Assembly (NCBI RefSeq): GCF_001652585.1
Contig: NZ_LWLG01000011.1
Span: 37,111-69,110 of the forward strand
Source of the DNA: Thermosulfurimonas dismutans
GTDB taxonomy: Bacteria; Desulfobacterota; Thermodesulfobacteria; Thermodesulfobacteriales; Thermodesulfobacteriaceae
Length of the DNA stretch: 32,000 bases
Direction: 5' to 3'
The notes under the pieces: model-generated
What the model saw: only the letters and a program-made list of their open reading frames with translations
Database searches by the model: none
What the model was told of the DNA's origin: nothing
In this document: in pieces, positions 1-16,255 of the stretch
Position numbering within the stretch: the first letter of the stretch is position 1
How the letters are laid out: every line of letters starts with the position of its first letter
Position numbers and translations under genes: made by a program

Positions 1-133
1 TTCCTTCTCAAGGGCCTGGAGCCGAGACCTTAACCTCTCCGGGTCAAAGGCACCTCCTTAGGTCCGAAAGCTTATTTTCAAGCCTTTCAAGTTCGGCTTT
101 GATTTCAGCTGGCTGAAGAGCTACTTCTTTCAT
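1..133 (-). CDS. prfB: Peptide chain release factor 2, N-terminal part (cut by the window edge), with programmed +1 frameshift
   Basis: Too short for the ORF track. ATG at 133-131 follows AAGGAGGAGG. Frame 0 reads MKEVALQPAEIKAELERLENKLSDLRRCL then TGA (46-44). A +1 shift at CTT-TGA-C continues DPERLRSRLQALEKE to base 1. This is the typical RF2 N-terminus and recoding layout. Confidence 0.85.
43..58 (-). other. prfB +1 ribosomal frameshift cassette (internal SD, 3-nt spacer, CUU UGA C)
   Basis: The minus strand reads AGGAGG TGC CTT TGA C. E. coli prfB has AGGGGG TAT CTT TGA C, with the same spacing and slippery/stop context. Confidence 0.85.
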
Positions 134-144
134 AACCTCCTCCT

Positions 145-1470
145 TTAGGCCTTCGCGATCATGGCCCGCATGAGATCGGCCGCGTTTTCCGAGCGTCCGG
201 AAATTTCACCTATGTATTCCAGTAGCTGGAGTAAAAAATAAACTCTTGAAAAATCGGTATCAAGGGCAAAGACCTCCCTTTTGATCTCGGTCGAGAAAAG
301 ATCGTTTTCGTGTTCGCGACGTCGTATTTCGCGCACGATTTCCTTGGCATCCTGTCTGGAAGCCTCATCCCCCCTCTCGATGTACAAACGAGATTTCTCA
401 ATAAGAGGCCCCAAAAACTCCGCAGTCTTCACATTTTCTTCAAGAAGTTTCAAAATCTTGGAGGACAGAACCTCCGGGACGGCAACTTGCTTAAAGGTTA
501 GCCATTTCAGGATGTCTTCCGCAGCATCCGCTACAGCATCCTGCTCTTTAAGATACAGAAACAATTCGAACTTATCCACCGGCGTAATAATGCCATAGGG
601 TAAATGTCCTCTTATGTTTTGTTTTAAGCGATCGGCTTCCCTCTCGATATCAATGATGTCCCGAGAAATCTCCTCCAAACGCTCTTTATCTCCCTTAAAG
701 TAGGCCTCCAAAGCCAGGGGCAAACGCTCCGTGCACTCAATCACCAGCCTGGCATGCCTTTCAAGAAGATCAAACAGATAGGGCTTCTCTTTCTCTTCCG
801 TTTTCTCAGGAAGGACCTTCTCATGTTTCACCACTTTCCCTTCTACGATGTAAACAATTTCTTCCGCGATATTGGTGGCCAGATCCGCCACCCTCTCAAG
901 ATTCTGAGCCACTACAATATACTCCACCCCGATCCTGGTGGTCTGAGGATTCTTCTCCATGCAATCCACGATTTTCTCGATCACCAACTTTTTGTAACGA
1001 TCCACCTCATCATCCCAGGACTTTATCTCCCGAGCCTTTTGGGCATCTCGGCCCACAAAGGCATTGATGACTTCTTCGAGCATCCGCAGGGCCTTACGGG
1101 CCATCTCTGAAAGATCAACGGGACAGGTAAAGACGTGCGGTAAGGCTAAAAGACGCGGCACCCTCTCCGCAATATTTACTGCCTGATCTCCCAACCTCTC
1201 CAGATCTCGGATCATATCCAGAGTAGAAACCACGAAACGAAGATCACTAGCCACCGGATGTTTAAGAGCAATGGTTTCCAGACAAAGCCTGTCAATGGCA
1301 ACATCCAGGGCGTCCACCCGCATATCCTGAGCGATGACCTTTTCGGCCAACTCCGGGTCCCGCTTCTCAAAGGCCGTAACCGCCGATCGCACCATCTCCA
1401 CCACCAGACGGCACATCTCAAGGAGATGGTTGCGAATATCCTGTAAATTTTTTTCTAAAAGGACACTCAT
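145..1470 (-). CDS. PhoU (two PhoU repeats) fused to a DUF47/TIGR00153 (PhoU-like, Pit-accessory type) domain
   Basis: The N-terminal ~215 aa carry both PhoU repeats, with acidic motifs DMRVDALD and DDEVDRY. A VLPEKTEEKEKP linker follows, then a DUF47-like half (IEREADRLK..., ITPVDKFELFLYLKEQDAVADAAEDI). I trimmed the start to ATG 1470-1468 (MSVLLEKNL), which follows AAGGGGAG. The 20 codons the track adds upstream have no RBS. Confidence 0.8.
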   Translation of the reverse strand: MSVLLEKNLQDIRNHLLEMCRLVVEMVRSAVTAFEKRDPELAEKVIAQDMRVDALDVAIDRLCLETIALKHPVASDLRFVVSTLDMIRDLERLGDQAVNIAERVPRLLALPHVFTCPVDLSEMARKALRMLEEVINAFVGRDAQKAREIKSWDDEVDRYKKLVIEKIVDCMEKNPQTTRIGVEYIVVAQNLERVADLATNIAEEIVYIVEGKVVKHEKVLPEKTEEKEKPYLFDLLERHARLVIECTERLPLALEAYFKGDKERLEEISRDIIDIEREADRLKQNIRGHLPYGIITPVDKFELFLYLKEQDAVADAAEDILKWLTFKQVAVPEVLSSKILKLLEENVKTAEFLGPLIEKSRLYIERGDEASRQDAKEIVREIRRREHENDLFSTEIKREVFALDTDFSRVYFLLQLLEYIGEISGRSENAADLMRAMIAKA

Positions 1471-1618
1471 CGAAACGCTCCCCTTACCCGGCCTTATGAA
1501 AAAGTTACCTGAATTTGATCCCCGGGACAAGGTTTGAGCTTGTTCTTGTTAAAGAATATAAAAAGAAGGGCTTATTGAACCGAAAGAATATGCCCCAAAA
1601 ACTATAAAAAGCCTTATT

Positions 1619-2395
1619 TCACGACTTACGCCCGTAACCTTCCAAGTCCAGTGATACCTTTTTAAAGCCCAGTAGTTTCAAGGATTTGACCCAAATTTCT
1701 CTATTATAAAAAGCCCTCTCAAGGGCCCCTTCCGGGACCTCTACCCGGGCTTCTCCTCTGAGATATCTCACTCTCAAAGGTTGCACTTTCAATAAGTCTT
1801 TCAACTTCCTTTCGGCCTCATAGACCATTTTCAAGGCCTCCTCGGTCACGGGTTCTCCAGGAGGAAAACGGGTAGCCAAACACGGCGAGGACGTTTTTTC
1901 AGCCTGGGGAAGTCCCAGTTTTCTAGCCAGTTTCCGCACCTCGGTCTTGTTAAGCCCTCCCGCAAGAAGAGGGCTTTCTACGCCCAGTTCCTTCAAAGCC
2001 CTTAAGCCCGGCCTATCTTCAAAAAGATCGTCCAGTTGGGTCCCGTCCCAAACGGCTTCAGCTCCCCAGGCCCTGGCCACTTCGTAAAATTTCTCAAAAA
2101 GGGCCTTTTTGCAGTGATAACAGCGATCAGGAGGATTTTCCCGAAAGGCCGGGAGACTGAGGGGCTCAAATTTTACTTCATAATGTTCAACTCCAAGATG
2201 GCCTGCCGTCCTCCTTGCTAGCTCGCTTTCCTCTGGGGGGAAGATCGGCCCCGTGGCGGTAATAGCGAGGACGGAGTCCCTTCCCAAAGTCCGGATGGCC
2301 AAAGCTAGGAGAACGGCACTGTCCACCCCTCCGGACAGGGCCACCGCCACTCGACGGTGGCCCTCAAAGACTTTCTTTAAGCTCTCCGGAATCAC
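1619..2395 (-). CDS. PP-loop ATP pyrophosphatase of the LarE / TIGR00268 type (candidate sulfur transferase)
   Basis: SGGVDS PP-loop at residues 21-26. The SPCLATRF motif matches the LarE catalytic-Cys region (C172). CYHC lies at residues 92-95. The GTG start overlaps the upstream TAG (TAGTG). Confidence 0.75.
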   Translation of the reverse strand: MIPESLKKVFEGHRRVAVALSGGVDSAVLLALAIRTLGRDSVLAITATGPIFPPEESELARRTAGHLGVEHYEVKFEPLSLPAFRENPPDRCYHCKKALFEKFYEVARAWGAEAVWDGTQLDDLFEDRPGLRALKELGVESPLLAGGLNKTEVRKLARKLGLPQAEKTSSPCLATRFPPGEPVTEEALKMVYEAERKLKDLLKVQPLRVRYLRGEARVEVPEGALERAFYNREIWVKSLKLLGFKKVSLDLEGYGRKS

Positions 2396-3591
2396 TAGCC
2401 TGAAGATCTAAAAGGGAAGAGATCAGCCCCTGGTATGGGGGCCACCGGTTCAGTAAGGAGCATCTCGCCTTTCTTGATCCAATCTTTTAGGATCTCGGCA
2501 ATTTCCTTGGCCCGAACATAACTCGAAATGGGAACCGTGGGCACTTCCTTATCCAGGACCTTGATCTTTCCGCTCTTGAGCTCGGCGTAGCTTACGATTC
2601 CATAGTTCCGCTTGATGCCGTTGGGGTAGTCGTAAGCATAGTCCACTACCTGGGTAAAAAGATCCTCATCACCCAGACCGGCATACATGGCCACTTCTTC
2701 GTTCAGAATGGGGATAGGAATACCTAGCCCCACGGCCAAGGAACAACCATAACCCAGGTGACTAGTGCCCACGATCCAGCGCGGATCCATCTCCTTAAGG
2801 TTCCCGATTACCATCAAGGTAGCCCCCGGAGTAAGGGGAGCCCCTTTCTCCGTGCGTTTAACCTTCATGTTGTGCTGTGTCCCGGCCCAGATCACATACC
2901 CTTTGGCCCCACCTAAGAAAATCCTAGTACCGATCCCGATGGTCTTGAGATAAGGGTCTTTCAGAAGGGGGGAGAGTTGACCGGCAGTGGCATAATTGGC
3001 GTTGGCCGCCTTGGGACGCAAAATCCCCATATAGGTATAAATGGTTTTATCAGAAAGGTTAATGGCGCAGTTATAGTTCTGATAGGCATTGCGGGGATTG
3101 CAGAGCACGGCGTAGGGGAGATCCTTGAGGGTGATCTCAGCTTCATATTCTTTGCGTGGATAACAGTGAGTGCCGTAAGCCACGGCCTTCAGATAAACCT
3201 TCTTGCCGGCCACCAGATCATGAATTACGTGTCCCCCACCGTAACGGAACTCGCCCGGGAAAACTTTATTTAGGGGATCGTCCTCCACAGGCTCCGTAGC
3301 CCCGAGGTAAATGTCTACGGCCGCAAGCCCGGCGTAGGCCGGAACCCCGTTAAGCCACACCCGGTAGGCCTTAATAGTGGGTACAGTGTGCCCAAAGTTG
3401 ATGAAGGCCCCGGAGGAACACATGGGCGAAAAGGTCCCAGTGGTGACCACATCCACCTCGCGAGCGGCCTCCTCTGGCCCTACTTCCTTCACGATTTTTA
3501 CCATTTCCTCCGCGGTCACCACCACCGCTTCCCCTCGCCGAATCTTCTCGTTGATCTCGTCAATGGTTTTCCGTACCTTGAACTCCCCCAT
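2395..3591 (-). CDS. COG1900 / DUF39 family protein (homocysteine biosynthesis, sulfur-incorporation type as in methanogens)
   Basis: 398 aa with the characteristic DUF39 sequence (VVTTGTFSPMCSSGAFINFGH, RVWLNGVPAYAGLAAVDIYLGAT, GGGHVIHDLVAGK, TRIFLGGAKGYVIWAGTQH). ATG is preceded by GAGGAGG at 7 nt. Confidence 0.75.
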   Translation of the reverse strand: MGEFKVRKTIDEINEKIRRGEAVVVTAEEMVKIVKEVGPEEAAREVDVVTTGTFSPMCSSGAFINFGHTVPTIKAYRVWLNGVPAYAGLAAVDIYLGATEPVEDDPLNKVFPGEFRYGGGHVIHDLVAGKKVYLKAVAYGTHCYPRKEYEAEITLKDLPYAVLCNPRNAYQNYNCAINLSDKTIYTYMGILRPKAANANYATAGQLSPLLKDPYLKTIGIGTRIFLGGAKGYVIWAGTQHNMKVKRTEKGAPLTPGATLMVIGNLKEMDPRWIVGTSHLGYGCSLAVGLGIPIPILNEEVAMYAGLGDEDLFTQVVDYAYDYPNGIKRNYGIVSYAELKSGKIKVLDKEVPTVPISSYVRAKEIAEILKDWIKKGEMLLTEPVAPIPGADLFPFRSSG

Positions 3592-3613
3592 AAGACGCCT
3601 CCTCTAAAGATAT

Positions 3614-4210
3614 TCAGTCCACCACCGATATGACCCGGTGGCCAGCCACCTCCAGGGCCGAAGCCAAAGGTTCCAATGGCATGCGTTCAAGGCGGATAAA
3701 GTAGATCTTCTCGCCACTCGGTTCCACATCCATGCCAATAGAGATCACCTTTCCTCCGTGGGCGCGGACGATCTCAAGGACCCCATCAAGGCCTTCCGGC
3801 TCTCGAGGAATAACGTCAAGCCGACTGCTCGAACGCAAAAGTCCCATAAGTTCAATAAAGGCCTCCAGGATATCCGTAATAGTGATGATCCCCACCAAGC
3901 GATCGCCTTCCACCACCGGGAGACCGCCGATTTTGTGCCGATAAATGATCCGGGCCGCCGCATCAATGGTGGTATCCGGGGAAACCGTGATGGGATTAAG
4001 GATCATGATCTCCCTAAGAGGTTTCCCTAACTCCTCTGGCCGGGCATACTGGCGAATAGTACTTTCGGTAACCAACCCCACCAATCGCCCATCTTCCACC
4101 ACCGGAAGGTGTCTTATGGAATGGAGTTTCATGAGCTGCACCGCCTTCTCCAAGGAGTCCTCTGGAGAGACCGTAACCACCTTTTTTATCATCCAGTGCC
4201 TAACCTTCAA
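3614..4210 (-). CDS. CBS-pair protein with C-terminal ACT-like domain (AcuB-like regulatory subunit)
   Basis: Two CBS motifs (VVTVSPEDSLEKAVQLM...HLPVVEDGRLVGLVT and ITVSPDTTIDAAARII...GGLPVVEGDRLVGIITITD), then a small beta-alpha domain. TTG start with AAGGGGG 8 nt upstream. Confidence 0.75.
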   Translation of the reverse strand: MKVRHWMIKKVVTVSPEDSLEKAVQLMKLHSIRHLPVVEDGRLVGLVTESTIRQYARPEELGKPLREIMILNPITVSPDTTIDAAARIIYRHKIGGLPVVEGDRLVGIITITDILEAFIELMGLLRSSSRLDVIPREPEGLDGVLEIVRAHGGKVISIGMDVEPSGEKIYFIRLERMPLEPLASALEVAGHRVISVVD

Positions 4211-4275
4211 AAATAGGCCCCCTTATTCCTTATTTCCCCTCAATCTATTCTGATTGTAGTCTTTTCGCAAGAAGG

Positions 4276-4986
4276 CTAAAAAGCCCTAAGAAGGGCCGCC
4301 AGAGCCGAAAGGAAGAGAAACAGATGTATAACACGATGATAAGAAACCTCGCCTATCCGACGATAAAGTCCTTGGCCTAAGGCCATCCCGAAAAGAACAG
4401 CCGGAAGATAGAGCAGATAGGCCTTCAAAGTGGAATCCCCCAATCGCCCGTAAAGTCCATGGGCCAGAATCATAAAACCCACCATGACCATGAATACCCC
4501 CTGAAGAGCACTCTTGAGCTCGTCCTTTCCCACTCGCAGTAGATTGACATAAATCACCACCGGTGGCCCAGGGGTGTTGAGCATCCCGCCCAGAAAACCG
4601 GCCATAAACCCGAAAACCGGGCCCCAAAGTGGTGAAAGCTGTATCTTCCTGAATCTAGGGAAACATTCCCAGAGACAATATCCTGAGACCGTAAAGAAAA
4701 GGACAAACCGCAGGATCTTCTCCGGAAAAAGGCTAAGGGCCTCGGCTCCCAGAAAGATCCCCGGAATAGCTCCCAGGAGAAGCCCCAATACAGGTTTCAG
4801 TCTAAAGCTTCTCCTCATAAGCCAAAATAAAATAAGGTTCATGGTGAATCCCCAAAGAGCGATCACCGGAACAATTTCGGAAAGGGGACGAATTAGGGAG
4901 AGTAAAGGGACAGCCAATAGAGCAAAAGCAAAACCTGCAAGCCCGTGAACAAAAGCCGAAAAAAAGAGAATCAGGGCCTCAAGCAT
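4276..4986 (-). CDS. TSUP (TauE/SafE, DUF81) family anion permease
   Basis: 236 aa and polytopic, with the two-repeat Gly-rich TM pattern (GLAGFAFALLAVPLL, GFLGGMLNTPGPPVVIY). Its ATG overlaps the hisS stop (TAATG). Confidence 0.75.
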   Translation of the reverse strand: MLEALILFFSAFVHGLAGFAFALLAVPLLSLIRPLSEIVPVIALWGFTMNLILFWLMRRSFRLKPVLGLLLGAIPGIFLGAEALSLFPEKILRFVLFFTVSGYCLWECFPRFRKIQLSPLWGPVFGFMAGFLGGMLNTPGPPVVIYVNLLRVGKDELKSALQGVFMVMVGFMILAHGLYGRLGDSTLKAYLLYLPAVLFGMALGQGLYRRIGEVSYHRVIHLFLFLSALAALLRAF

Positions 4987-6248
4987 TAGAATCGCAGATC
5001 TATCAAAATACGATTGACAAGATCGGTAAGATTTTCAAAAGGAAGAGGCTCCTGAGTCCTGGTCTCAAGATCCTTAAGAAGGGCTTCTTTTTTCTGGAGT
5101 TCATCCTCGCCAAGGATCAAGACCTTTCTTGCGGAAAGACGATCGGCCTGCCGCAGGAGGGCTTTGAGACGGCGCCCCTCGTAGTCGGCCTCTACCCGGA
5201 TACCCCTAGCTCGCAGACTCCGGGCAAGTCTGAGAGTCACCCGAGCAGCCTCTTCTCCAAGAGGGGCGATAAAAAGCTCAGGCGGACTTTCGAGTTCCGC
5301 AGGAAGCTCAGAAACCAGAAGCCACCTCTCTATACCGATGGCAAAACCCACCGCCGGAGTATCCGGTCCTCCAAGGGCGGAAACTAATCCATCGTAGCGC
5401 CCACCGGCAGCTACCGTATCCTGAGCCCCGAGTCCTGGGGCTTTGATTTCAAAGATGGTCCGCGTGTAGTAATCCAGGCCCCGGACCAGCCTAGGATTTA
5501 CTTGGTAGCTCACTTCGGCCTCGGAAAGGTAGGCTTTAAAAGCTTCGTAGTGGGCACGACAGTCTTCACAGAGAAAATTGGTAAGCTCGGGGGCCTCCCG
5601 ATACTCAGCCTGGCAGACTTCGTTTTTACAGTCCAAAGCCCGCAAAGGATTGCGTTCGGCCCGTCTCTGACAATCCTCACAAAGACGCTCTTTACGAGCA
5701 AGGAGAAACTCTCTCAGTTCTTCCCGAAAAGGCACTCGACAATCTGGACAGCCCAATGAGTTTATTTCAAGCCTTAAATTCCGGGCTCCACCGGCTTCAA
5801 GGATATCCAAGGCCATCACTACCAGTTCGGCATCCGTACCCGGAGATTGGGCGCCAAAGACTTCCACATCAATCTGGTGAAACTGACGCAGTCGGCCTTT
5901 CTGGGGACGTTCATGTCGGAACATGGGACCAATGGTAAAGAGTTTAATAGGCTTGGGACGGTTGTGTAAACCATGTTCAATAAAAGCTCTCACTATGCCC
6001 GCAGTGGCTTCCGGCCGCAGGGTCAACCTTTCCTGATTACGATCCACAAAGGTGTACATCTCCTTTTCCACAATATCAGTGGCCTCGCCAATACTGCGGG
6101 CAAACAGTTCAGTCTTTTCCAAAATAGGAACCCGGATTTCCCGAAATCCATAGCGGACAAGAATCTCTCGGGCTTGGGCCTCAAGCCAGCTCCAGGCCGG
6201 AGTTTCTTCCGGCAAAATGTCCTTAAATCCTCGTACAGACTTAATCAT
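4986..6248 (-). CDS. hisS: Histidine--tRNA ligase
   Basis: Class II motifs VRGFKDILPEE, LRPEATAGIVRAF and FRHERPQKGRLRQFHQ, plus a C-terminal anticodon-binding domain. I prefer ATG 6248 (MIKSVRG). The track starts at GTG 6254. No SD is present, and the start overlaps the DUF190 stop. Confidence 0.9.
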   Translation of the reverse strand: MIKSVRGFKDILPEETPAWSWLEAQAREILVRYGFREIRVPILEKTELFARSIGEATDIVEKEMYTFVDRNQERLTLRPEATAGIVRAFIEHGLHNRPKPIKLFTIGPMFRHERPQKGRLRQFHQIDVEVFGAQSPGTDAELVVMALDILEAGGARNLRLEINSLGCPDCRVPFREELREFLLARKERLCEDCQRRAERNPLRALDCKNEVCQAEYREAPELTNFLCEDCRAHYEAFKAYLSEAEVSYQVNPRLVRGLDYYTRTIFEIKAPGLGAQDTVAAGGRYDGLVSALGGPDTPAVGFAIGIERWLLVSELPAELESPPELFIAPLGEEAARVTLRLARSLRARGIRVEADYEGRRLKALLRQADRLSARKVLILGEDELQKKEALLKDLETRTQEPLPFENLTDLVNRILIDLRF

Positions 6249-6582
6249 TTTCACAGGGAGGATTCTTATGACAGATGGTATAAAGCTCGGTTACGGTAAT
6301 CATACCCCGGGTAAGGATTCTCTCAAGCTCGGGAAGAATGTCCTCCACCTTCTCTAGGGTCTCAACAACCTCTATTTTCAGAGGCAAATTCTCCGAAGCC
6401 CTAAGGAGGCTTGCAGAGTGGACTTTTTTATCCGGCCCGTAACCATAAACCCCTTTAAATAGGGTAAGTCCGTGAATATCTCTTTCTCGAAGAAAGTCCA
6501 AAATGACCTTATAAAGGGGCTTTTTCCCCAGTTTTTCATCTTCGTCCACATAAATGGAAAGCAACACACATTTTTCTTTCAT
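6241..6582 (-). CDS. DUF190 (PII-like) protein, the common partner of CrcB
   Basis: 113 aa (LLSIYVDEDEKLGKKPLYKVILDFLRERDIHGLTLFKGVYGYG). It overlaps the crcB stop by ATGA. Confidence 0.65.
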   Translation of the reverse strand: MKEKCVLLSIYVDEDEKLGKKPLYKVILDFLRERDIHGLTLFKGVYGYGPDKKVHSASLLRASENLPLKIEVVETLEKVEDILPELERILTRGMITVTELYTICHKNPPCEND

Positions 6583-6953
6583 CTAATCAACACCTGAGCC
6601 AAAAGTTCTCCCAATCTTACCCCTATTATACCCAAAATAAAGCTACCCAAAGCGTTAAGAGCGGTAAGGAGCCATTCTCCACTCTTCAAAAGTTCATTGG
6701 TCTCGTAGGCGAAAGTAGAAAAAGTGGTAAAGGAGCCCAGAAAACCCACGGCCAGAAAGAATCTTACCGCCGGGCTTACATAAAGCGTTCCGGTAGCAAG
6801 ACTCATGAGAAAACCCAAGGCAAACGACCCTAGGAGATTCACCGCCAGAGTACCTAAAGGAAAGTCCACCCCAAAACGGAGAAACCAACCACTTACCAGA
6901 TAGCGACAGACGGCCCCGAGGCATCCCCCGAGGCCTATGTAAATCAACTTCAA
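6579..6953 (-). CDS. crcB: Fluoride ion channel CrcB/FluC
   Basis: 124 aa with 4 TM segments and the motifs GGCLGAVCRY, GTLAVNLLGSF and GFLGSFTTFSTF. TTG start preceded by GGGAGGG. Confidence 0.9.
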   Translation of the reverse strand: MKLIYIGLGGCLGAVCRYLVSGWFLRFGVDFPLGTLAVNLLGSFALGFLMSLATGTLYVSPAVRFFLAVGFLGSFTTFSTFAYETNELLKSGEWLLTALNALGSFILGIIGVRLGELLAQVLIR

Positions 6954-6982
6954 TCTATCCCTCCCTACCGCTGTCCGGCTTA

Positions 6983-7009
6983 TTTATACCACTTTTAAGT
7001 TTTTGTAAA
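6983..7009 (-). promoter_or_regulatory. Candidate crcB-operon promoter (TTTACA, then extended -10 TGGTATAAA)
   Basis: The minus strand reads TTTACA-N15-TATAAA with TG at the extended -10 position, about 30 nt upstream of the TTG start. Confidence 0.35.
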
Positions 7010-7030
7010 TTTTTACTTTTCTTTACAAAA
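7001..7030. repeat. Inverted repeat TTTTGTAAA-N12-TTTACAAAA
   Basis: Perfect 9-bp arms (7001-7009 and 7022-7030) in the crcB/cytochrome divergent intergenic region. The left arm covers the putative crcB -35. Confidence 0.6.
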
Positions 7031-7105
7031 TTATGAAATATTCCTAAATAACTATCAAAAGGAAGTTTCTTAACAATATTTCAAGACCTTGGGCCCAAAA
7101 AAGAT

Positions 7106-7134
7106 TTGGTATTTTATATAAATGAGTTTATAAC
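7106..7134 (+). promoter_or_regulatory. Candidate sigma70-type promoter of the cytochrome gene
   Basis: TTGGTA-N17-TATAAC, about 40 nt upstream of the ATG. RBS GGGAGA lies 6 nt before the ATG. Confidence 0.35.
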
Positions 7135-7172
7135 TTAATATTGAAGTCAAATCTACGCTAGGGAGAGCGACC

Positions 7173-8660
7173 ATGAAATTAAAAAGCTTTTGGGTTTGGA
7201 GCCTGGCCCTTTTTCTGCTCGCCGGAAAGGCTTGGGCGAATTCTTCGATAAGCGAGGATACCCAAACCTGTCTGGAATGTCACGAGGCTCTTACACCAGG
7301 TATTGTAGCAGACTGGAGGGAAAGCCTGCATGCCCAGATCACTCCCGAGGAGGCCCTGAAAAAAGCCCCTCTTGCAAGACGAATCAGCACCTCTCAGGTC
7401 CCCGAAGACAAGAAAGGTGTAGTGGTAGGATGTGCCGAGTGTCATACCCTCAATCCTGACTCTCACCAGGACACTTTCGAACACAACGGTTTCAGGATTC
7501 ATGTGGTGGTAACTCCCAAGGATTGCGAGACTTGCCATCCCAAGGAGGTAAAGGAATACGAGCACAATCTCATGTCCAAGGCCTATCGCAACCTCAAGAA
7601 TAACCCCGTCTATCACGGGCTCGTCGAGACCTCTTTAGGGCCGCAGAAGCTAGAGAAAGGTAGGCTAGTCTATCTCCCTTCTCATCCCCTTACGCAGGCC
7701 GACGCCTGTTTTTCCTGTCACGGGACCAAGGTGGAAGTCAAAGGGTTAACCTCGCGAGACACCCCCATGGGAGAGATGGAATTCCCGGTGCTTTCGGGAT
7801 GGCCCAACCAGGGAACGGGCAGGATCAACCCCGACGGTTCGGAGGGGGCCTGCACCTCTTGTCATCCCCGACACTCTTTCTCTATAGAAATTGCTCGAAA
7901 ACCCTACACCTGTGCGCAGTGTCACAAAGGCCCGGATGTGCCAGCCTATAAAGTCTACGTAGTGAGCAAACACGGGAACATTTTCCAATCTCAAGGAAAA
8001 CAATGGAATTTTAAAGCCGTACCTTGGAAGGTAGGCGAGGATTTCAAGGCCCCCACTTGTGCTACCTGTCACGTAAGCCTCCTGGTGGACAAGGACGGAG
8101 CTGTAATAGTGGAGAGGACTCACCAGATGAACGATAGGAACGCCTGGCGGCTTTTTGGTCTCATCTATGCCCATCCCCACCCCAAGGAATCTGACACTAC
8201 TATCATAAAGAACAAAGCGGGACTATCTCTTCCCACCGAACTTACCGGAGAGCCTGTAACAGAATTCCTCATCGACAAAAAAGAGATGAAACGTCGCCAG
8301 ACCCGTATGAAGAGGGTGTGCTCCGCCTGCCACGCCACCACCTGGGTGGAAGGTTTCTTTACCCGGCTTCACAAAACCATCGAGATCACCAACCAGCAGA
8401 CCCTAGCCGCCACTCAGATCGTGCTAATGGCCTGGAAAGAGGGCCTGGCACAGGGACTTCCCTCGAGCATCTTTGATGAGGCCATCGAGAAAATGTGGGT
8501 GGAACAATGGCTCTTTTACGCCAACTCCGTGCGTTTTGCTTCGGCCATGAGCGGGGCTGACTACGGGGTCTTTGCTAACGGCCGTTGGTTTTTGAACAAA
8601 AACCTTCAAGCCATGAAGGATTGGGTAGAGTTCAAACGCCGGACCAAGAAAAAGGATTAA
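7173..8660 (+). CDS. Periplasmic octaheme c-type cytochrome, hydroxylamine oxidoreductase (HAO) family
   Basis: Signal peptide ending AWA|N. Eight CxxCH motifs (CLECH, CAECH, CETCH, CFSCH, CTSCH, CAQCH, CATCH, CSACH). Motif order and flanks resemble my recollection of Nitrosomonas HAO (not verified against a database), e.g. CTSCHPRHSFSIEIARKPYTCAQCH...SKHG and APTCATCH. Confidence 0.8.
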   Translation: MKLKSFWVWSLALFLLAGKAWANSSISEDTQTCLECHEALTPGIVADWRESLHAQITPEEALKKAPLARRISTSQVPEDKKGVVVGCAECHTLNPDSHQDTFEHNGFRIHVVVTPKDCETCHPKEVKEYEHNLMSKAYRNLKNNPVYHGLVETSLGPQKLEKGRLVYLPSHPLTQADACFSCHGTKVEVKGLTSRDTPMGEMEFPVLSGWPNQGTGRINPDGSEGACTSCHPRHSFSIEIARKPYTCAQCHKGPDVPAYKVYVVSKHGNIFQSQGKQWNFKAVPWKVGEDFKAPTCATCHVSLLVDKDGAVIVERTHQMNDRNAWRLFGLIYAHPHPKESDTTIIKNKAGLSLPTELTGEPVTEFLIDKKEMKRRQTRMKRVCSACHATTWVEGFFTRLHKTIEITNQQTLAATQIVLMAWKEGLAQGLPSSIFDEAIEKMWVEQWLFYANSVRFASAMSGADYGVFANGRWFLNKNLQAMKDWVEFKRRTKKKD

Positions 8661-8679
8661 CCTGCGAGGCTAAAAGAGA

Positions 8680-8707
8680 CCCCCGGAGCTGGTATTAGCT
8701 CCGGGGG
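8680..8707 (-). terminator. Intrinsic terminator hairpin between convergent genes
   Basis: Perfect 11-bp GC-rich stem CCCCCGGAGCT / AGCTCCGGGGG with a 6-nt loop. On the minus strand it is followed by TCTCTTTTAG. On the plus strand no U-tract follows. Confidence 0.7.
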
Positions 8708-8713
8708 AAATCT

Positions 8714-10423
8714 CTAAAGTTCCACTCCCCAGCGTCTAAGGAAGTTGAGTCCGCCCGGAGGGACATAAGTATTCTTATACCCCGCAGCCATAAGCCACCG
8801 CTGAGCCTCATAAGCTCGTCGGGAAGAATTACAGATAAGAATTATGTCTTTATCCCGCGGAATCTTATCCAAATTGGCCCGCACCTTATCGTATTCCACA
8901 TGGATCCAGCGTCCCGGATACTTCTTGACCAGAGGTTCGGCTTCCTTGGGATGACGCGTATCCACGAAAACCGTATTAGGATCTCCTTCGCGGAGCCTAC
9001 GTAGGACCTCCTCCCAATCGATCTGCACCAGAAGACCGGTCAGAATGTTCTCCGCAGTGTGTGCTACGTCATGGATGGGATCGAGTGCGGAGTTGAAGGG
9101 CGGAGCATAGGCCAGCTCGAGCCCTATAAGGTCTTCCACCGTGGGTCTATGGGGTAAAATAGAAGATATAGCGTGTATACGGGCCAGCGTCCCGTCAGTC
9201 TTGGGCCCCACAGCCTGAAAGCCGAGCACTCGTCTGGTTACGCGGTCCACCACCAGTTCCACGAAGATAAAATCGGCCTCGGGATAGTAATGGGCCCGCT
9301 CGGTCTGGTTGTTGAGGGCGTAGATGGCGTCGAAACCCTCGGCCCGGGCCACTGAAAGCGAGATGCCGCAGGCCCCGATGGCCAGATCGAAACATTTCAT
9401 GATGAAGGCCCCTACAGTGCCCGGAAACTTGGTGGGTCGGCCAGCAAGGTTGTCTCCGATCACCCGTCCCTCGCGGTTGGCTAGAGACCCCAGAGGCATG
9501 ACCACTCTTTTCCCCAGCACTAGGTGGGGGATTTCTACACAATCGCCCCCGGCGTAGATGGCCGGATCTGAGGTCTGTAGCCGATCGTTCACCACAATCC
9601 CGCGGGTAAGCGGCGAAACTAAAAGTCCTGCCTTCTGGGCCAATTCGGTATTGGGCCTCACCCCGGTGGCAAATAGCACCAGATCGGCAGGATAGATACC
9701 GTTTTCCTCCACCACCTCCGTAACCTTACCGTCTTTTCCACGGATTTCCTTTATCCGGGCGTTAAGTACTACCTTTACGCCCTTTTCCCGGAGGTGATGT
9801 TCCACCATGCGGGCCAAAGGTGGATCCACCAGACGAGGAAGCACCTGATCAAAATACTCAAGCACCGTTGTCTCAACTCCCCATAGATCGGAGAAGGCCT
9901 CGGCCATCTCAAGCCCTATGGGCCCGGCTCCGATTACCACCACCCGTTCCACCTCTCCCCGGGCCAGCCTGCTTTTGATCTCTATGGCCTTGTGCAGATT
10001 GGAGATAGCAAAAACCCCGTCAAGATCTCTTCCCGGAATGGGCGGCATAAATGGGGTAGAGCCCGTAGCCAGTACCAAGTTGTCGTAAGGAATCTCGTCT
10101 TGTTTACCGGAATCGAGGCATTTTACCTTAACCACCTTTCGTTCCCGATCGATATCGGTGGCCTGGGTCTTGGTCAGCACGTTCAGGCCCTTGGCATTGC
10201 GAAAATAGTGCTCGTCCCTCAACATGTGAAAGGAGGTCTCTCGCAGTTGGTTCTCATCCGGGATATCGCCGGAGACATAGTAGGGTATTCCACATCCCCC
10301 GTAAGAAATGAGATCGTCCTTATCAATAAGAGTTATCTCGGCCTCGGGCATAAGCCTTTTGGCCCGACTAGCGGCCTTAGGACCGCAAGCCACCGCCCCG
10401 ATCACCACGATTCTTTTACCCAT
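8714..10423 (-). CDS. FAD/NAD(P)H pyridine nucleotide-disulfide oxidoreductase of the CoA-disulfide reductase class, fused to a C-terminal rhodanese domain (persulfide/polysulfide reductase type)
   Basis: GxGxxG (VVIGAVACGP), the redox Cys in SYGGCGIPYY (Cys44 from the trimmed start), a second dinucleotide fold (VVVIGAGPIGLE), and a C-terminal rhodanese domain with active-site loop CNSSRRA. The start is trimmed to ATG 10423 (MGKRIVVIG), which follows GGGGGG. Confidence 0.8.
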   Translation of the reverse strand: MGKRIVVIGAVACGPKAASRAKRLMPEAEITLIDKDDLISYGGCGIPYYVSGDIPDENQLRETSFHMLRDEHYFRNAKGLNVLTKTQATDIDRERKVVKVKCLDSGKQDEIPYDNLVLATGSTPFMPPIPGRDLDGVFAISNLHKAIEIKSRLARGEVERVVVIGAGPIGLEMAEAFSDLWGVETTVLEYFDQVLPRLVDPPLARMVEHHLREKGVKVVLNARIKEIRGKDGKVTEVVEENGIYPADLVLFATGVRPNTELAQKAGLLVSPLTRGIVVNDRLQTSDPAIYAGGDCVEIPHLVLGKRVVMPLGSLANREGRVIGDNLAGRPTKFPGTVGAFIMKCFDLAIGACGISLSVARAEGFDAIYALNNQTERAHYYPEADFIFVELVVDRVTRRVLGFQAVGPKTDGTLARIHAISSILPHRPTVEDLIGLELAYAPPFNSALDPIHDVAHTAENILTGLLVQIDWEEVLRRLREGDPNTVFVDTRHPKEAEPLVKKYPGRWIHVEYDKVRANLDKIPRDKDIILICNSSRRAYEAQRWLMAAGYKNTYVPPGGLNFLRRWGVEL

Positions 10424-10498
10424 GTTCCCCCCCTTTGCGGGATTTACTTCCTTCTTATCACTTTCTTCAGGACCTCGCAAATTCTCAAAAAATTTTTT

Positions 10499-10527
10499 AT
10501 TAAATCATACCTACCTATATTTCCCAA
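10499..10527 (-). promoter_or_regulatory. Candidate promoter of the CoADR-rhodanese gene
   Basis: The minus strand reads TTGGGA-N17-TTTAAT, roughly 70 nt upstream of the ATG. Confidence 0.3.
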
Positions 10528-10574
10528 AATCCATATTTTTCCTTAACTTACCACGATTTGAGATAGCAATCCCT

Positions 10575-10628
10575 GAACCCCACTTAATCGTTTCGTTCCC
10601 CAGATTCCCACTTAAACGGAAATCTGGG
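10575..10628 (+). repeat. Two copies (A, B) of a 16-nt motif GAWYCCCWCTTAAWCG; copy B sits in a hairpin
   Basis: A is 10575-10590 GAACCCCACTTAATCG. B is 10603-10618 GATTCCCACTTAAACG. The stem CCCAGATT (10599-10606) pairs with AATCTGGG (10621-10628). GATAGCAA flanks both sides (10562-10569 and 10628-10635). Confidence 0.7.
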
Positions 10629-10636
10629 ATAGCAAC

Positions 10637-10665
10637 TTAAACTAGTCGCTAACACCTTTTATAAT
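10637..10665 (+). promoter_or_regulatory. Candidate trpD-ktrBA promoter
   Basis: TTAAAC-N17-TATAAT. The -10 lies about 37 nt upstream of the ATG, and RBS GGGAGG follows. Confidence 0.4.
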
Positions 10666-10701
10666 ACTATTCACACTTCGAAGAGCGGGAGGTAAGGACT
10701 T

Positions 10702-11742
10702 ATGGAAGACCTCAAGCCCTATCTAGCCAAGCTGGTCGAGGGGAAGGAGCTTACGGAGGAAGAGGCTGCAGAGGTCATTGGGCTCATCATGGACGGCCGG
10801 GCCACTCCGGCCCAGATCGGAGCCCTGCTTTGTGCTCTGCGCATAAGGGGAGAAACCTGGCAGGAGGTAGCTGGAGCGGCCCGAGCTATGCGAAAACGCA
10901 TGGTAAAGGTGCCTCACGGTCTTCCTGAGGATCAGCCCCTGGTGGATACCTGTGGAACCGGAGGGGACGCCAAGGGTACCTTCAACGTCTCTACGGCAGC
11001 GGCCTTTGTAGTGGCGGCTGCGGGCATTCCGGTGGCCAAACACGGAAACCGTTCCGTCACCAGCCGCTCGGGAAGCGCAGACGTGCTCGAGGCCTTGGGT
11101 ATCCCGCTCGAACTCCCGCCGGAATTTGCGGCCAGGGCCCTTTCCGAGGTAGGCTTTACTTTTCTCTTTGCCCCAGCCTATCACCCAGCGGTAAAGGCCG
11201 TCATGGGACCAAGACGCGAACTGGGATTCCGGACTCTCTTTAACCTTTTGGGCCCTCTCTGCAATCCCGCCCTGGCAAACACCCAAGTACTCGGGGTCTT
11301 TGACTTCCGGCTCACGGAGAAGATGGCCTACGCCCTGGATGCCCTGAGGGTGAGACGGGCGCTCGTGGTCTTCGGAGAGGGAGGCTATGACGAGTTCACC
11401 GTGACCGGCTGGACCAAGGTCTCTGAACTCCGAGACGAACGGATCACCACCTACTATGTTACCCCGGAGGAGGTAGGGCTTGAGCGCTGCGAGGACCCCG
11501 AGGAGCTTAAGGGCGGAGATGCAGAGGAAAACGCCCGGATCCTAAAAAACATACTCTCCGGAAAGGATACGGGGCCCCGGCGGGACATGGTGTTACTGAA
11601 CGCTGGAGCGGCCCTCTACGCCGCGGAAAAGACCTTGGATCTAAAAGGGGGGGTGAAGCTTGCCCGTGAGATCCTTGAATCCGGAAAGGCCTACGAAAAG
11701 CTCCAGGAAGTACAAAACTTCTTTAAGACCCTGAAAACCTGA
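10702..11742 (+). CDS. trpD: Anthranilate phosphoribosyltransferase
   Basis: Motifs CGTGGDAKGTFNVST and KHGNRSVTSRSGSADVLEALG, at the typical 346-aa length. Confidence 0.85.
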   Translation: MEDLKPYLAKLVEGKELTEEEAAEVIGLIMDGRATPAQIGALLCALRIRGETWQEVAGAARAMRKRMVKVPHGLPEDQPLVDTCGTGGDAKGTFNVSTAAAFVVAAAGIPVAKHGNRSVTSRSGSADVLEALGIPLELPPEFAARALSEVGFTFLFAPAYHPAVKAVMGPRRELGFRTLFNLLGPLCNPALANTQVLGVFDFRLTEKMAYALDALRVRRALVVFGEGGYDEFTVTGWTKVSELRDERITTYYVTPEEVGLERCEDPEELKGGDAEENARILKNILSGKDTGPRRDMVLLNAGAALYAAEKTLDLKGGVKLAREILESGKAYEKLQEVQNFFKTLKT

Positions 11743-13094
11743 TGTTTACCGTCCGGCCCCCTATACGCTCGACCTTCTATCTGGTTTTCTCTTTCGCGAT
11801 CGCCTCCCTTTTAGGAAGCCTCCTACTGGTTCTCCCTGGGATGCATCGGGGGCATCTCTCCTTTCTCGACGCCCTTTTCACCTCCACCTCGGCCGTCTGC
11901 GTGACTGGTCTCACAGTGGTAGATACCGCCGATACCTTCACCCTTCCGGGCAAAATCGTCCTGCTTGCGCTCATCCAGGTGGGTGGACTCGGGATCATGA
12001 CCTTCTCCACCCTGTTTTTTCTCCTTTTTGGAAGGGCTGTTCCCATCGAGGAAAGTCTGGCCCTCAAGGAAAGTTTTACGCCTTATCAAGGAGTAAGATT
12101 AAAACCTCTGCTCCTGACCATCATTTCCTATACTTTGATTATAGAAGCCGTGGTAACCATTTTATTATTTCTAGGCTTCATGCCGCTTTTTGCTCCTTCT
12201 TCAGCCCTGTTTCACGCCGCCTTTCACGCGGTCTCGGCCTTCTGTAACGCCGGCTTCTCAGATCTTCCGGACGGCCTTCTCGCTTATAGGAGGAACTACT
12301 ACCTTCCGGGAGTTATCATGCTGGCCGTCCTAGCCGGGAATACGGGGTTCCCCATCATCTTTGAGACCGTAAACCGCATACGCTCCCGTCGCCCCCGGAG
12401 CTGGTCCCTGCACCTAAAACTCACGCTCTCGATACACCTGGTCCTGATACTAATGGGAGGCTTCTTCTTTTTTTGGTTTGAACGCGCCGGGGCCTTCCAA
12501 AACCTCCCCTTACCTTCTAAGCTGATGAACGCGCTCTTCCTTAGTGTCAGTGCCCGAACGGCCGGCTTCAACCTCATAGATCTAACCGCTTTCAGTGAAG
12601 CCTCTCTATATCTTTTAATTTCTCTCATGTTTGTGGGGGCTTGTCCCGGTTCCACTGGTGGTGGTGTCAAGACCACCACTCTGGGGGTCCTTCTGGCCTC
12701 GGTCGTGAGTCGTTTAAGGGGCCTCTCCCGAACCATGGCCTTCAAACGCACCATCCCGGAAGAGCTCCTCCATAAAGCCCTTACCCTGGTAACTCTTTAC
12801 GCCCTCGTCATTTTTGCCGCTCAGTTTTTGCTGGTCTCTTCTCTACCCCACCGCCCCTTTTCGGACCTGGGCTCTGATTTCCTGGCCAGGCTCTTCGAGG
12901 TCACCTCGGCCCTAGGGACGGTGGGACTTTCAATCGGTTTAACCCCAGAACTTTCCAACTTTGAAAAACTTGTGATCATAGGCACCATGTTCATTGGACG
13001 GGTGGGGGTCTTATCCCTAGCCATACTTCTTACGGGCCTTTCCGCTGGCCACAAAGAGTTTTATTATCCTAAAGAGGAGGTCCTTCTGGGTTAA
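11742..13094 (+). CDS. ktrB: K+ transporter membrane subunit, TrkH/KtrB family
   Basis: Polytopic 450-aa protein with pore-loop motifs TSAVCVTGL, IQVGGLGIMTF and CPGSTGGGVKTTT. Its ATG overlaps the trpD stop (TGATG). Confidence 0.85.
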   Translation: MFTVRPPIRSTFYLVFSFAIASLLGSLLLVLPGMHRGHLSFLDALFTSTSAVCVTGLTVVDTADTFTLPGKIVLLALIQVGGLGIMTFSTLFFLLFGRAVPIEESLALKESFTPYQGVRLKPLLLTIISYTLIIEAVVTILLFLGFMPLFAPSSALFHAAFHAVSAFCNAGFSDLPDGLLAYRRNYYLPGVIMLAVLAGNTGFPIIFETVNRIRSRRPRSWSLHLKLTLSIHLVLILMGGFFFFWFERAGAFQNLPLPSKLMNALFLSVSARTAGFNLIDLTAFSEASLYLLISLMFVGACPGSTGGGVKTTTLGVLLASVVSRLRGLSRTMAFKRTIPEELLHKALTLVTLYALVIFAAQFLLVSSLPHRPFSDLGSDFLARLFEVTSALGTVGLSIGLTPELSNFEKLVIIGTMFIGRVGVLSLAILLTGLSAGHKEFYYPKEEVLLG

Positions 13095-13747
13095 TGACCA
13101 AGAAGCGTTTCGGTATCATCGGGTTGGGACGATTCGGGAGTTATCTAGCCCGCACCCTGGCCGAGCAGGGGCAGGAGGTCATCTGCATCGATCGATCTGA
13201 AAAAGCGGTTGAGGAAATAAGCCCGCTTGTGGCGCAGGCCGTGGTGGCCGACGCCACCAAAAAGGAAACCCTAGAACACCTGGGATTTCATAGAATAGAC
13301 ACCGCCATCGTGGCCATCGGGGCCCTGGCTCAGAGCGTGCTGGTAACTCTGTTTCTCAAGGAACTGGAGACCCCTTACATCATCGCCAAGGCCCTCAACG
13401 AAGAGGGGGCGAAGATCCTTTCCCTTATCGGGGCCGATCGGGTCATCATCCCTGAGAAAGACTCGGCGGTGAGACTGGCCCGTTCCTTGGTGATGCCCAA
13501 CCTCCTAGACTTTCTTCCTCTTCTTCCCGACTTCTATATCGCCGAGGTTTACCCTCCGGCAGACTTTGTCGGGAAAACCCTCAAGGAACTTGACCTTCGG
13601 AAGAGGTATCGGGTCTATGTAATAGGCATCAAGAGGGCTTTTTCAGATAAGATTCAACTACTCCCCCCGGCCGACTATGTAATAGAAAAAGACGACCTTC
13701 TTTACCTCGTAGGGCACAAAAAGGATCTCGCTCCCTTCACCAGCTAG
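13094..13747 (+). CDS. ktrA: K+ transporter NAD-binding regulatory subunit, TrkA/KtrA family
   Basis: RCK_N Rossmann motif IIGLGRFG plus a C-terminal RCK_C domain. 217 aa. Its ATG overlaps the ktrB stop (TAATG). Confidence 0.85.
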   Translation: MTKKRFGIIGLGRFGSYLARTLAEQGQEVICIDRSEKAVEEISPLVAQAVVADATKKETLEHLGFHRIDTAIVAIGALAQSVLVTLFLKELETPYIIAKALNEEGAKILSLIGADRVIIPEKDSAVRLARSLVMPNLLDFLPLLPDFYIAEVYPPADFVGKTLKELDLRKRYRVYVIGIKRAFSDKIQLLPPADYVIEKDDLLYLVGHKKDLAPFTS

Positions 13748-13779
13748 AAGCCACCGCCTGAGGCCTCAGGCGGTGGCTT
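13748..13779. terminator. Perfect 32-nt GC-rich palindrome between convergent operons (probable bidirectional terminator)
   Basis: AAGCCACCGCCTGAGG|CCTCAGGCGGTGGCTT starts 1 nt after the ktrA stop. No real U-tract on either side. Confidence 0.55.
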
Positions 13780-13821
13780 AGCCTGTCAACAGAGTGAATG
13801 TACGCAGGTCCTCAACTAATC

Positions 13822-14247
13822 TTAATGGCCTCCTACGCCCGGCAAGATAATAGGCTTCATAATGGCAAAGACAAACTCAGCTATCATGATCAAGAAGAAG
13901 ATAATATAAGCCTTCTGTCCGCCGGCTCGCGCAAGGGCTGCCACCAAAGCCAACAAAGGAGCCAAAGCCAGTATACAAATACCGAGCATGCTCAGGCAGT
14001 CCATCCCTTTAAGATTAGAAAGGAACCAAGCATATCCATGGATTTCTATCCCTTTGACCTCCTTCCAAAATTCGCTTACCGGGAGGTTCCAATTGGCAAT
14101 GGCCTGCTTCATGTCCACAAAACCTGAAAGCCCAACTAGATAAAGCAGACCGAAGATCACCATGACCGCTAGACCAATATAAGTAGTTATTTCCATGGCT
14201 CTTGCGAAGCTAATATTTAAGGGATCAATATAGACCTGCTTTTCCAT
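13822..14247 (-). CDS. Small integral membrane protein (possibly the DUF1634-type partner of TSUP permeases)
   Basis: 141 aa with 3-4 predicted TM helices, a strong RBS (AAAGGAGGG), and a position 24 nt downstream of the TSUP gene. The family assignment is from memory only. Confidence 0.55.
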   Translation of the reverse strand: MEKQVYIDPLNISFARAMEITTYIGLAVMVIFGLLYLVGLSGFVDMKQAIANWNLPVSEFWKEVKGIEIHGYAWFLSNLKGMDCLSMLGICILALAPLLALVAALARAGGQKAYIIFFLIMIAEFVFAIMKPIILPGVGGH

Positions 14248-14271
14248 CGTTTCCCTCCTTTTTAGGAATTT

Positions 14272-15243: not shown

Positions 15244-15306
15244 AACACCTCCCTCCTTAGCCTAGATTTGAAACTTTTCTACACCTCTTCCCTTTTTTTG
15301 CAACCC

Positions 15307-16245: not shown

Positions 16246-16255
16246 AGTCGGCCTC

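Follow-up and report, generated by a model that had tools for sequence, protein, structure and literature searches.

What brings a gene for homocysteine synthesis and a gene for a nickel-pincer cofactor to overlap? The question is raised by the sulfur-disproportionating bacterium Thermosulfurimonas dismutans, in which three tightly packed minus-strand genes occupy positions 1619-4210 of the window, the whole 32,000-nucleotide stretch of contig NZ_LWLG01000011.1 analysed here. They encode a protein with a pair of CBS domains, an enzyme of the DUF39/COG1900 (HcyBio) family and a PP-loop protein of the LarE type. Several pieces of evidence, taken mostly from relatives, suggest that this module is a reduced sulfur-insertion cluster: each enzyme probably works in its own pathway, and the grouping would reflect co-expression and not a new pathway. 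The layout reported by an earlier sequence-only reading of this DNA, three co-oriented genes separated by 22 nt and then overlapping at TAGTG, was found as described, on the minus strand:

3614-4210, minus strand: AcuB-family CBS-pair (Bateman) protein with a C-terminal ACT-type domain, 198 aa (PF00571 and PDB alignments)
2395-3591, minus strand: stand-alone DUF39/COG1900 (HcyBio) enzyme of the L-aspartate-semialdehyde sulfurtransferase type, 398 aa (PF01837)
1619-2395, minus strand: [4Fe-4S]-type LarE, a PP-loop ATP-dependent sulfur insertase, 258 aa (TIGR00268)

The stop codon TGA of the CBS gene is followed by 22 nt, including AGAGGAGG, and by the ATG of the DUF39 gene, while the stop codon TAG of the latter shares one base with the GTG start of larE. 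The module belongs to an array of eight co-directional genes, crcB-DUF190-hisS-tauE-CBS-DUF39-larE-phoU. The translational coupling of DUF39 and LarE invoked by the sequence-only reading is thus real as an overlap, but taken alone it is weak evidence of a partnership here, because plainly unrelated genes of the array also overlap, by 4, 14 and 1 nt. A promoter and terminator scan of positions 1-7300 gave nothing above the shuffled expectation and therefore does not define the operon. Rfam analysis of the window revealed two tRNAs only, with no riboswitch (SAM, fluoride or other).

The family assignments of the sequence-only reading agree with profile searches for all three products: the CBS protein matches PF00571 in two stretches (119.8 bits), the middle protein matches PF01837 over its full length (522.5 bits, profile positions 1-349 of 349), and the third matches the LarE equivalog TIGR00268 with 269.5 bits for a cut-off of 150. 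The DUF39 protein has hundreds of relatives in Desulfobacterota at 65-95% identity, several of which are named “homocysteine biosynthesis protein” at NCBI, and shares 91% identity with its counterpart in Thermosulfurimonas marina. Four cysteines, Cys58, Cys143, Cys175 and Cys283, are invariant in an alignment of 20 sequences. Cys58, within a PMCSSG motif, and Cys143 are close to the reported Cys54 and Cys131 of MA1821, the comparison being one of reported positions and not of an alignment with MA1821. The MJ0100-type fusion is absent, as the DUF39 open reading frame (ORF) ends after the PF01837 domain and the CBS pair is encoded by a separate upstream ORF. An assignment to MMP16/ComF, the COG1900d coenzyme M synthase, was rejected: TIGR03287 gave 134 bits, its cut-off being 363.95, the match is confined to profile positions 1-274 of 391, and it is accompanied by no Fer4 match or ferredoxin insert. 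The AlphaFold model of the DUF39 protein is of poor quality and yielded no fold matches.

In Desulfovibrio vulgaris Miyazaki, three genes scattered in the genome, DvMF_1464, DvMF_0262 and DvMF_0044, are required for homocysteine synthesis; they encode proteins of the DUF39, NIL-ferredoxin and COG2122 types (PMC5764234). Whether loss of such an enzyme gives homocysteine/methionine auxotrophy has been examined genetically only for the homologues of Desulfovibrio (PMC5764234) and Methanosarcina (PMC4045070). As the sequence-only reading had noted, no NIL-ferredoxin gene is present in the 32 kb window, nor are larA, larB or larC. Of the Pfam matches of the window, none was recognised as a COG2122 candidate, although no search was aimed at COG2122.

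A T. dismutans protein named LarE at NCBI has exactly the sequence of the PP-loop protein (100% identity), and the best matches of the latter among solved structures include Lactiplantibacillus plantarum LarE (5udq, E-value 1e-38) and 8cnz. Its SGGVDS PP-loop spans residues 21-26, and the SGGxDS signature is invariant in 54 aligned LarEs. The protein also possesses a Cys92-x-x-Cys95 motif and Cys172, the CxxC...C pattern by which Thermotoga maritima LarE holds its [4Fe-4S] cluster; this third cysteine is one residue off the sacrificial Cys176 of L. plantarum LarE, as is the case in the T. maritima protein. Residues S180, R181, E200, R212 and R214 of the L. plantarum enzyme correspond to T, R, E, R and R, with S180, R212 and R214 being those that bind the substrate phosphate. 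To the PP-loop, the cysteines and these residues, PMC9283937 assigns the binding of ATP, of the [4Fe-4S] cluster and of the phosphate of pyridinium-3,5-biscarboxylate mononucleotide (P2CMN). NadE, QueC, MnmA and asparagine synthase were considered as alternative identities and rejected, since they give only short N-terminal PP-loop matches below cut-offs. LarEs linked to DUF39 elsewhere have the same character. Nine of them, from different clades, reach 227-353 bits on TIGR00268, and SGGxDS, CxxC, the third cysteine, T/S180, R181, E200 and R212 are all kept in 32 of 32 LarEs of the DUF39-linked clades (R214 in 31 of them), 22 of these proteins having been read directly from loci adjoining DUF39.

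The CBS protein is, as the sequence-only reading had it, the product of a separate gene in which the CBS pair is followed by an ACT-type domain. The Pfam ACT model gave no match in its C-terminal half, and the assignment comes from the alignment of residues 1-196 with solved AcuB-type CBS+ACT structures (5awe, E-value 4e-29; GsAcuB, 9s4w, E-value 1e-25). Similarity with the CBS pair of MJ0100 (3kpb) is weaker (E-value 5e-13). The AcuB architecture, two CBS motifs and then an ACT domain in about 200 residues, is thus present, while the AcuB link to acuA, acuC and acsA is not, as the window holds no GNAT, HDAC or Acs gene. AcuB is a Bateman+ACT adaptor that senses adenine nucleotides or diadenosine tetraphosphate (Ap4A) and acts as the inhibitor of an enzyme with which it partners (PMC13121692, PMC13039410), and the archaeal L-aspartate semialdehyde sulfurtransferases (L-ASST) carry a fused S-adenosylmethionine (SAM)-binding CBS domain (PMC12068725, PMC4045070). 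In 13 of the scanned species genomes, the gene immediately upstream of DUF39 encodes a CBS-ACT homologue, and the same holds for T. marina and for loci L088 and L089 (L numbers designate individual loci). By analogy with the archaeal fused CBS pair, the CBS-ACT protein is most likely a regulator of DUF39 acting in trans and doing the same job. At L007 (5316-9978) and L009, an acetyl-CoA synthetase gene (681 aa) is located between the AcuB-like CBS-ACT gene and the DUF39-LarE pair.

Is the pairing more than a peculiarity of this genome? The scan took one genome per species and, out of 586 confirmed matches, retained the best 80, with DUF39 proteins 65-82% identical to that of the window. All 80 loci are from Desulfobacterota (Thermodesulfobacteriota at NCBI), and because only these best matches were kept, the adjacency frequencies describe close relatives only. 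The sequence-only reading had set conservation in related genomes as one of the points on which it would stand or fall, and the adjacency is conserved: of the 77 species loci that could be assessed by tblastn and ORF analysis, 23 have a LarE gene (33-46% identical) immediately after DUF39 and on the same strand. At one further scanned locus, LarE lies 3 kb from DUF39, behind an inserted MoxR/transglutaminase module. The adjacency occurs in about six lineages with differing flanking genes. When the DUF39 proteins are placed in a neighbour-joining tree, loci with a linked LarE make up whole clades, plus the singleton L068. The clades are the Thermosulfurimonas group, L007/L009, L076, L010/14/19/29/53 and a Desulfobulbia-type clade; in the last, 13 of 13 assessable loci are LarE-linked, a 14th (L027) having been left out of the count for having too little downstream sequence. 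The CBS-DUF39-LarE arrangement is also found in T. marina, L088 and L089, with an insert between DUF39 and LarE in L089. Flanks change from group to group: hisS-tauE...phoU in Thermosulfurimonas, pheA...HU in the Desulfobulbia-type clade, acs in L007/L009. The DUF39-LarE pair is thus a genuine and ancient trait of this phylum, with repeated losses. Lineages that do not have LarE at DUF39 present orders such as CBS-DUF39-secG-dxr-rseP or M23 peptidase-DUF39-thpR-recA-alaS, and neither LarE nor CBS-ACT stands beside DUF39 at 44 of 82 loci (the 80 scanned, T. marina and the window).

What the pair means is best judged from relatives in which other sulfur genes accompany it. In a Syntrophia-like branch, DUF39 and LarE occur inside larger clusters that are headed by an Rrf2 gene and contain NIL-ferredoxin. 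The most extensive, L176, reads LarC-x-x-TilS-Rrf2-CysK-HcyBio-NIL/Fd-MnmA-LarE-ThiI-like-Thi4 (NIL/Fd standing for NIL-ferredoxin); it covers 4043-15669 of the NCBI metagenome-assembled genome (MAG) GCA_040960625.1, and its ThiI-like product is a ThiI-like/NFACT-R_2 protein. The clusters of L156 and L101 resemble it. L117 has Rrf2-DUF39-NIL/Fd-LarE-IscS-IscU-MnmA, L098 has DUF39-NIL/Fd-LarE, and L171 has Rrf2-HcyBio-HMA-ThiF-PALP-LarE. Each enzyme of the Rrf2-headed clusters inserts sulfur in a different product: cysteine, homocysteine, 2-thiouridine (s2U), thiazole or pincer thiocarboxylates, the ThiI-like gene being probably devoted to 4-thiouridine (s4U). Because five loci (L098, L101, L117, L156 and L176) have NIL-ferredoxin and LarE within a single cluster, LarE does not replace NIL-ferredoxin. 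Nor is a missing NIL-ferredoxin beside DUF39 remarkable, considering its scattered position in D. vulgaris and the Thermodesulfatator MAG L005, of the same class as T. dismutans, in which it is surrounded by unrelated genes at a distance of 4.5 kb from CBS-DUF39. At the edge of L034 (16487-17157), a second, divergent DUF39 (52% identical, partial) has a NIL-ferredoxin gene as its neighbour, and the primary DUF39 of the locus has no partner nearby; some genomes therefore carry two DUF39 systems.

Other lar genes also appear in relatives. L076 has the order LarB-CBS-DUF39-LarE, with LarB 340 nt upstream (NF033503, 245.6 bits for a cut-off of 175), and LarC is found 4-6 kb upstream in L156 and L176. 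More distant LarEs from metagenomes (37-49% identical), collected with an alignment of eight closer sequences, have LarB adjacent in 18 of 80 loci and LarC in 15, together with MnmA nearby in about 12 and a ThiI-like gene in about 9. The canonical LarE-LarB-LarC order is seen at L083.

The best reading of these observations, in our estimate more likely than not, is a module in which the proteins have separate tasks. DUF39 would perform the reductive sulfuration of aspartate semialdehyde to homocysteine, with NIL-ferredoxin and COG2122 partners presumably encoded elsewhere in the genome. LarE, to judge from its conserved residues, would be a [4Fe-4S]-dependent enzyme that adenylates the carboxylates of P2CMN and turns them into thiocarboxylates in the making of the nickel-pincer cofactor. 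The AcuB-like protein would bind an adenosyl ligand (SAM, methylthioadenosine (MTA) or adenine nucleotides) and regulate DUF39 in trans. A larger, Rrf2-headed ancestral cluster, comprising CysK, DUF39, NIL-ferredoxin, MnmA, LarE, ThiI-like and Thi4 or IscS/IscU, may have co-expressed enzymes that share a sulfide/persulfide and Fe-S supply, of which most lineages would have retained only the DUF39-LarE core. DUF39 and LarE would then stay together, often with overlapping codons, because they descend from this shared-supply cluster. The identities of the genes, the conservation of their order and, in relatives, their coexistence with NIL-ferredoxin and lar genes are observed; we infer that the genes are co-transcribed, that the shared sulfur supply was the selective reason for their grouping, and that the CBS-ACT protein is a regulator.

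A closer bond had been proposed by the sequence-only reading, namely that LarE supplies or activates sulfur for DUF39. In its full form, LarE would be a dedicated partner in a variant homocysteine pathway, replacing NIL-ferredoxin and/or COG2122, and either sulfur would pass from the [4Fe-4S(+S)] cluster of LarE to DUF39 or a carboxylate substrate would be adenylated. The accepted chemistry of DUF39, an aldehyde plus sulfide plus two electrons, needs no ATP-dependent activation of a carboxylate. It is true that the adjacency, often with overlapping codons, persists in about six lineages as other neighbours change, that NIL-ferredoxin is found at none of the 23 LarE-after-DUF39 loci with flanks of up to 8 kb on each side, and that the pair is not addressed in the literature searched. 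However, the coexistence of NIL-ferredoxin and LarE in the five clusters named above, the presence of NIL-ferredoxin in the Thermodesulfatator relative L005, and the retention of the P2CMN-phosphate-binding residues by LarEs whose relatives have LarB or LarC near all speak for a LarE engaged in its usual work. In D. vulgaris, moreover, NIL-ferredoxin is unlinked to DUF39, yet it is required together with COG2122 (PMC5764234). The supply or replacement role of LarE is thus not borne out, and a dedicated partnership appears quite improbable. Conversely, DUF39 could be the client: it might use the pyridinium thiocarboxylate or nickel-pincer cofactor made through LarE, for example as a hydride donor to a thioaldehyde intermediate. 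Its reaction does require a two-electron reduction, L076 places LarB and LarE on either side of CBS-DUF39, and pincer families, the aldo-keto reductase (AKR) NphT and an ornithine cyclodeaminase family, were found precisely via lar-gene adjacency, in a survey that also counted hundreds of genomes with larBCE and no larA (PMC13524815). Such a dependence is hard to reconcile with the 44 of 82 loci in which DUF39 has neither LarE nor CBS-ACT beside it, or with D. vulgaris genetics, which point to NIL-ferredoxin and COG2122 and not to lar genes (PMC5764234). The MnmA, ThiI-like, CysK and Thi4 genes of the clusters encode no known users of the pincer cofactor, so that a sulfur theme fits them better, and the poor AlphaFold model offers no structural support. 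We regard this alternative as highly improbable, hardly to be expected.

It may also be asked whether the adjacency calls for any functional explanation: two unrelated housekeeping genes that were neighbours in the ancestor of the phylum may simply have been separated seldom. The distribution of the pair, mostly over whole clades of the DUF39 tree, is what vertical inheritance predicts. The pair has been lost with no visible replacement in Thermodesulfobacterium, Caldimicrobium, Thermodesulfatator and a large Desulfobacteraceae clade, unrelated genes of the window overlap as well, and a three-gene module could be inserted between the two (L006, L089). But it would be unusual for neutral neighbours to survive both the divergence of LarE to 33-46% identity and the change of every flank. 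The recurrence of the pair in coherent sulfur clusters and the singleton L068, within a clade otherwise devoid of LarE, point the same way, and this explanation is deemed unlikely. The module inserted in these two Thermodesulfobacteria-group genomes (L006, 9218-12440; L089, 4406-7975) consists of a MoxR AAA+ gene, a 264-aa gene and a transglutaminase (TgpA) gene, located exactly between DUF39 and LarE.

The reading as a reduced sulfur-insertion cluster has its own difficulties. The direct DUF39-LarE junction, often overlapping, has outlasted the loss or displacement of all other cluster members; such persistence exceeds the usual loose co-regulation and thereby leaves room for a direct link. 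There is accordingly a very small likelihood, in our estimate, of a direct dependence, in which LarE would load sulfur on DUF39, or the reductive step of DUF39 would draw on a pyridinium thiocarboxylate or nickel-pincer cofactor produced through LarE. The position equivalent to Glu223 of L. plantarum LarE is variable in the Desulfobulbia-type LarEs, and the independence of the two pathways in T. dismutans is deduced from relatives. The known role of AcuB is the control of Acs acetylation. Since an acs gene stands beside the CBS-ACT gene in L007 and L009, the CBS-ACT protein may have more than one client, and it could serve the classical target system of AcuB and not DUF39.

The wider surroundings of the module are conserved within the genus only. 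A further gene of the array, which the sequence-only reading had correctly placed next to the module, is the following:

4276-4986, minus strand: TauE/SafE (TSUP) permease, immediately upstream of the CBS gene (PF01925, 83.3 bits)

T. marina displays the identical order hisS-tauE-CBS-HcyBio-larE-phoU, and in other lineages the upstream genes differ, the link of TauE/TSUP to the module being thus limited to the genus. The gene after larE (145-1530, minus strand) encodes 461 residues in which a full PhoU (TIGR02135, 207 bits) is fused to a PhoU_div/DUF47 domain (TIGR00153); the T. marina product at this place is 440 residues long and has the same domains. At the other end of the array (6241-6953, minus strand), a crcB fluoride channel gene overlaps a DUF190 (P-II-like) gene, followed by hisS; no fluoride riboswitch was matched near this crcB-DUF190 pair at the Rfam gathering threshold. 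Divergent from the crcB array is a 495-aa multihaem c-type cytochrome (7173-8660, plus strand; Multi-haem_cyto, c554 and c7 matches). At 8714-10480 (minus strand) lies the gene of a pyridine-nucleotide disulfide oxidoreductase of 588 aa that ends in a rhodanese domain; its architecture resembles that of CoA-disulfide/persulfide reductases, and it may plausibly matter for sulfur disproportionation. Another TauE/TSUP permease, of 323 aa, adjoins a tandem-Usp protein and a CitMHS/ArsB-type transporter at 14272-17986 (minus strand), so that at least two TSUP genes lie within 12 kb in this genome.

Each gene of the module adds a new member to a family already known. In the literature searched, no description was found of the split AcuB-type regulator, of the conserved pairing of DUF39 with LarE, or of the clusters that bring several sulfur enzymes together. 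In agreement with the sequence-only reading, which held the partnership to be undescribed, no paper there contained both “DUF39” and “LarE”; the survey of lar neighbourhoods does not mention PF01837 (PMC13524815), and no description of the Rrf2-headed arrangement was found in that literature. The locus and its relatives provide three leads on the DUF39 homocysteine route. The AcuB-type CBS+ACT protein, encoded by its own gene, probably regulates the bacterial DUF39 enzyme in trans. The Rrf2-headed clusters, seemingly under common control, would point to a shared sulfide/persulfide supply in anaerobes. The DUF39-LarE association, finally, is conserved enough to merit genetic attention. Were a direct dependence true, COG1900 proteins would be a further client of the lar machinery besides LarA, which could help to explain larBCE genes without larA in many anaerobes; were LarE needed for homocysteine, nickel-pincer/thiocarboxylate chemistry would be tied to methionine biosynthesis. 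If LarE is not needed, as we expect, the locus offers a tidy case of operon-level grouping by shared sulfur chemistry and a caution against equating adjacency with partnership.

Set against known systems, the DUF39 protein resembles those of the L-ASST systems (MA1821/MA1822/MA1715 of Methanosarcina acetivorans, Dde_3007, and DvMF_1464/0262/0044) in its full-length PF01837 domain. Its conserved PMCSSG cysteine falls close to where MA1821 has its essential Cys54, and it is the stand-alone bacterial form of about 390 residues, as in Desulfovibrio. The known partner of these enzymes, NIL-ferredoxin, adjoins DUF39 in the Syntrophia-like relatives and lies 4.5 kb off in the Thermodesulfatator MAG, whereas the window lacks it. 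A LarE gene overlaps the DUF39 3' end. The CBS pair, fused in archaeal DUF39 enzymes, here belongs to a gene of its own that lies upstream and whose product has an ACT-type domain in addition. MJ0100 of Methanocaldococcus jannaschii, a DUF39 protein with a SAM/MTA-binding CBS pair (PDB IDs 3kpb-3kpd), shares the association of a Bateman module with DUF39, but here the pair is a separate polypeptide, is encoded upstream and not C-terminal, and is much closer to the AcuB type (E-value 4e-29). With AcuB of Bacillus and Geobacillus, which senses AMP/Ap4A and inhibits the deacetylase AcuC, the CBS-ACT protein shares the two-part architecture and full-length similarity. It differs by having no acuA, acuC or acsA nearby in the window and DUF39 as its conserved neighbour, an Acs gene standing beside it only in L007/L009. 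LarE matches the [4Fe-4S] enzyme of T. maritima and L. plantarum LarE (5udq; 8cnz) in SGGxDS, CxxC...C, S/T180, R212 and R214. Its gene stands outside a larABCE operon, after a homocysteine-synthesis gene and with no larB or larC in the window. The nearest parallel to the clusters of the relatives is the Rrf2 (IscR/CymR-type)-iscS-iscU-mnmA operon: L117, L101, L156 and L176 embed DUF39 and LarE in clusters of this kind, whereas the T. dismutans locus has lost nearby Rrf2, IscS/IscU, MnmA and NIL-ferredoxin genes, or never had them, and retains the DUF39-LarE pair.

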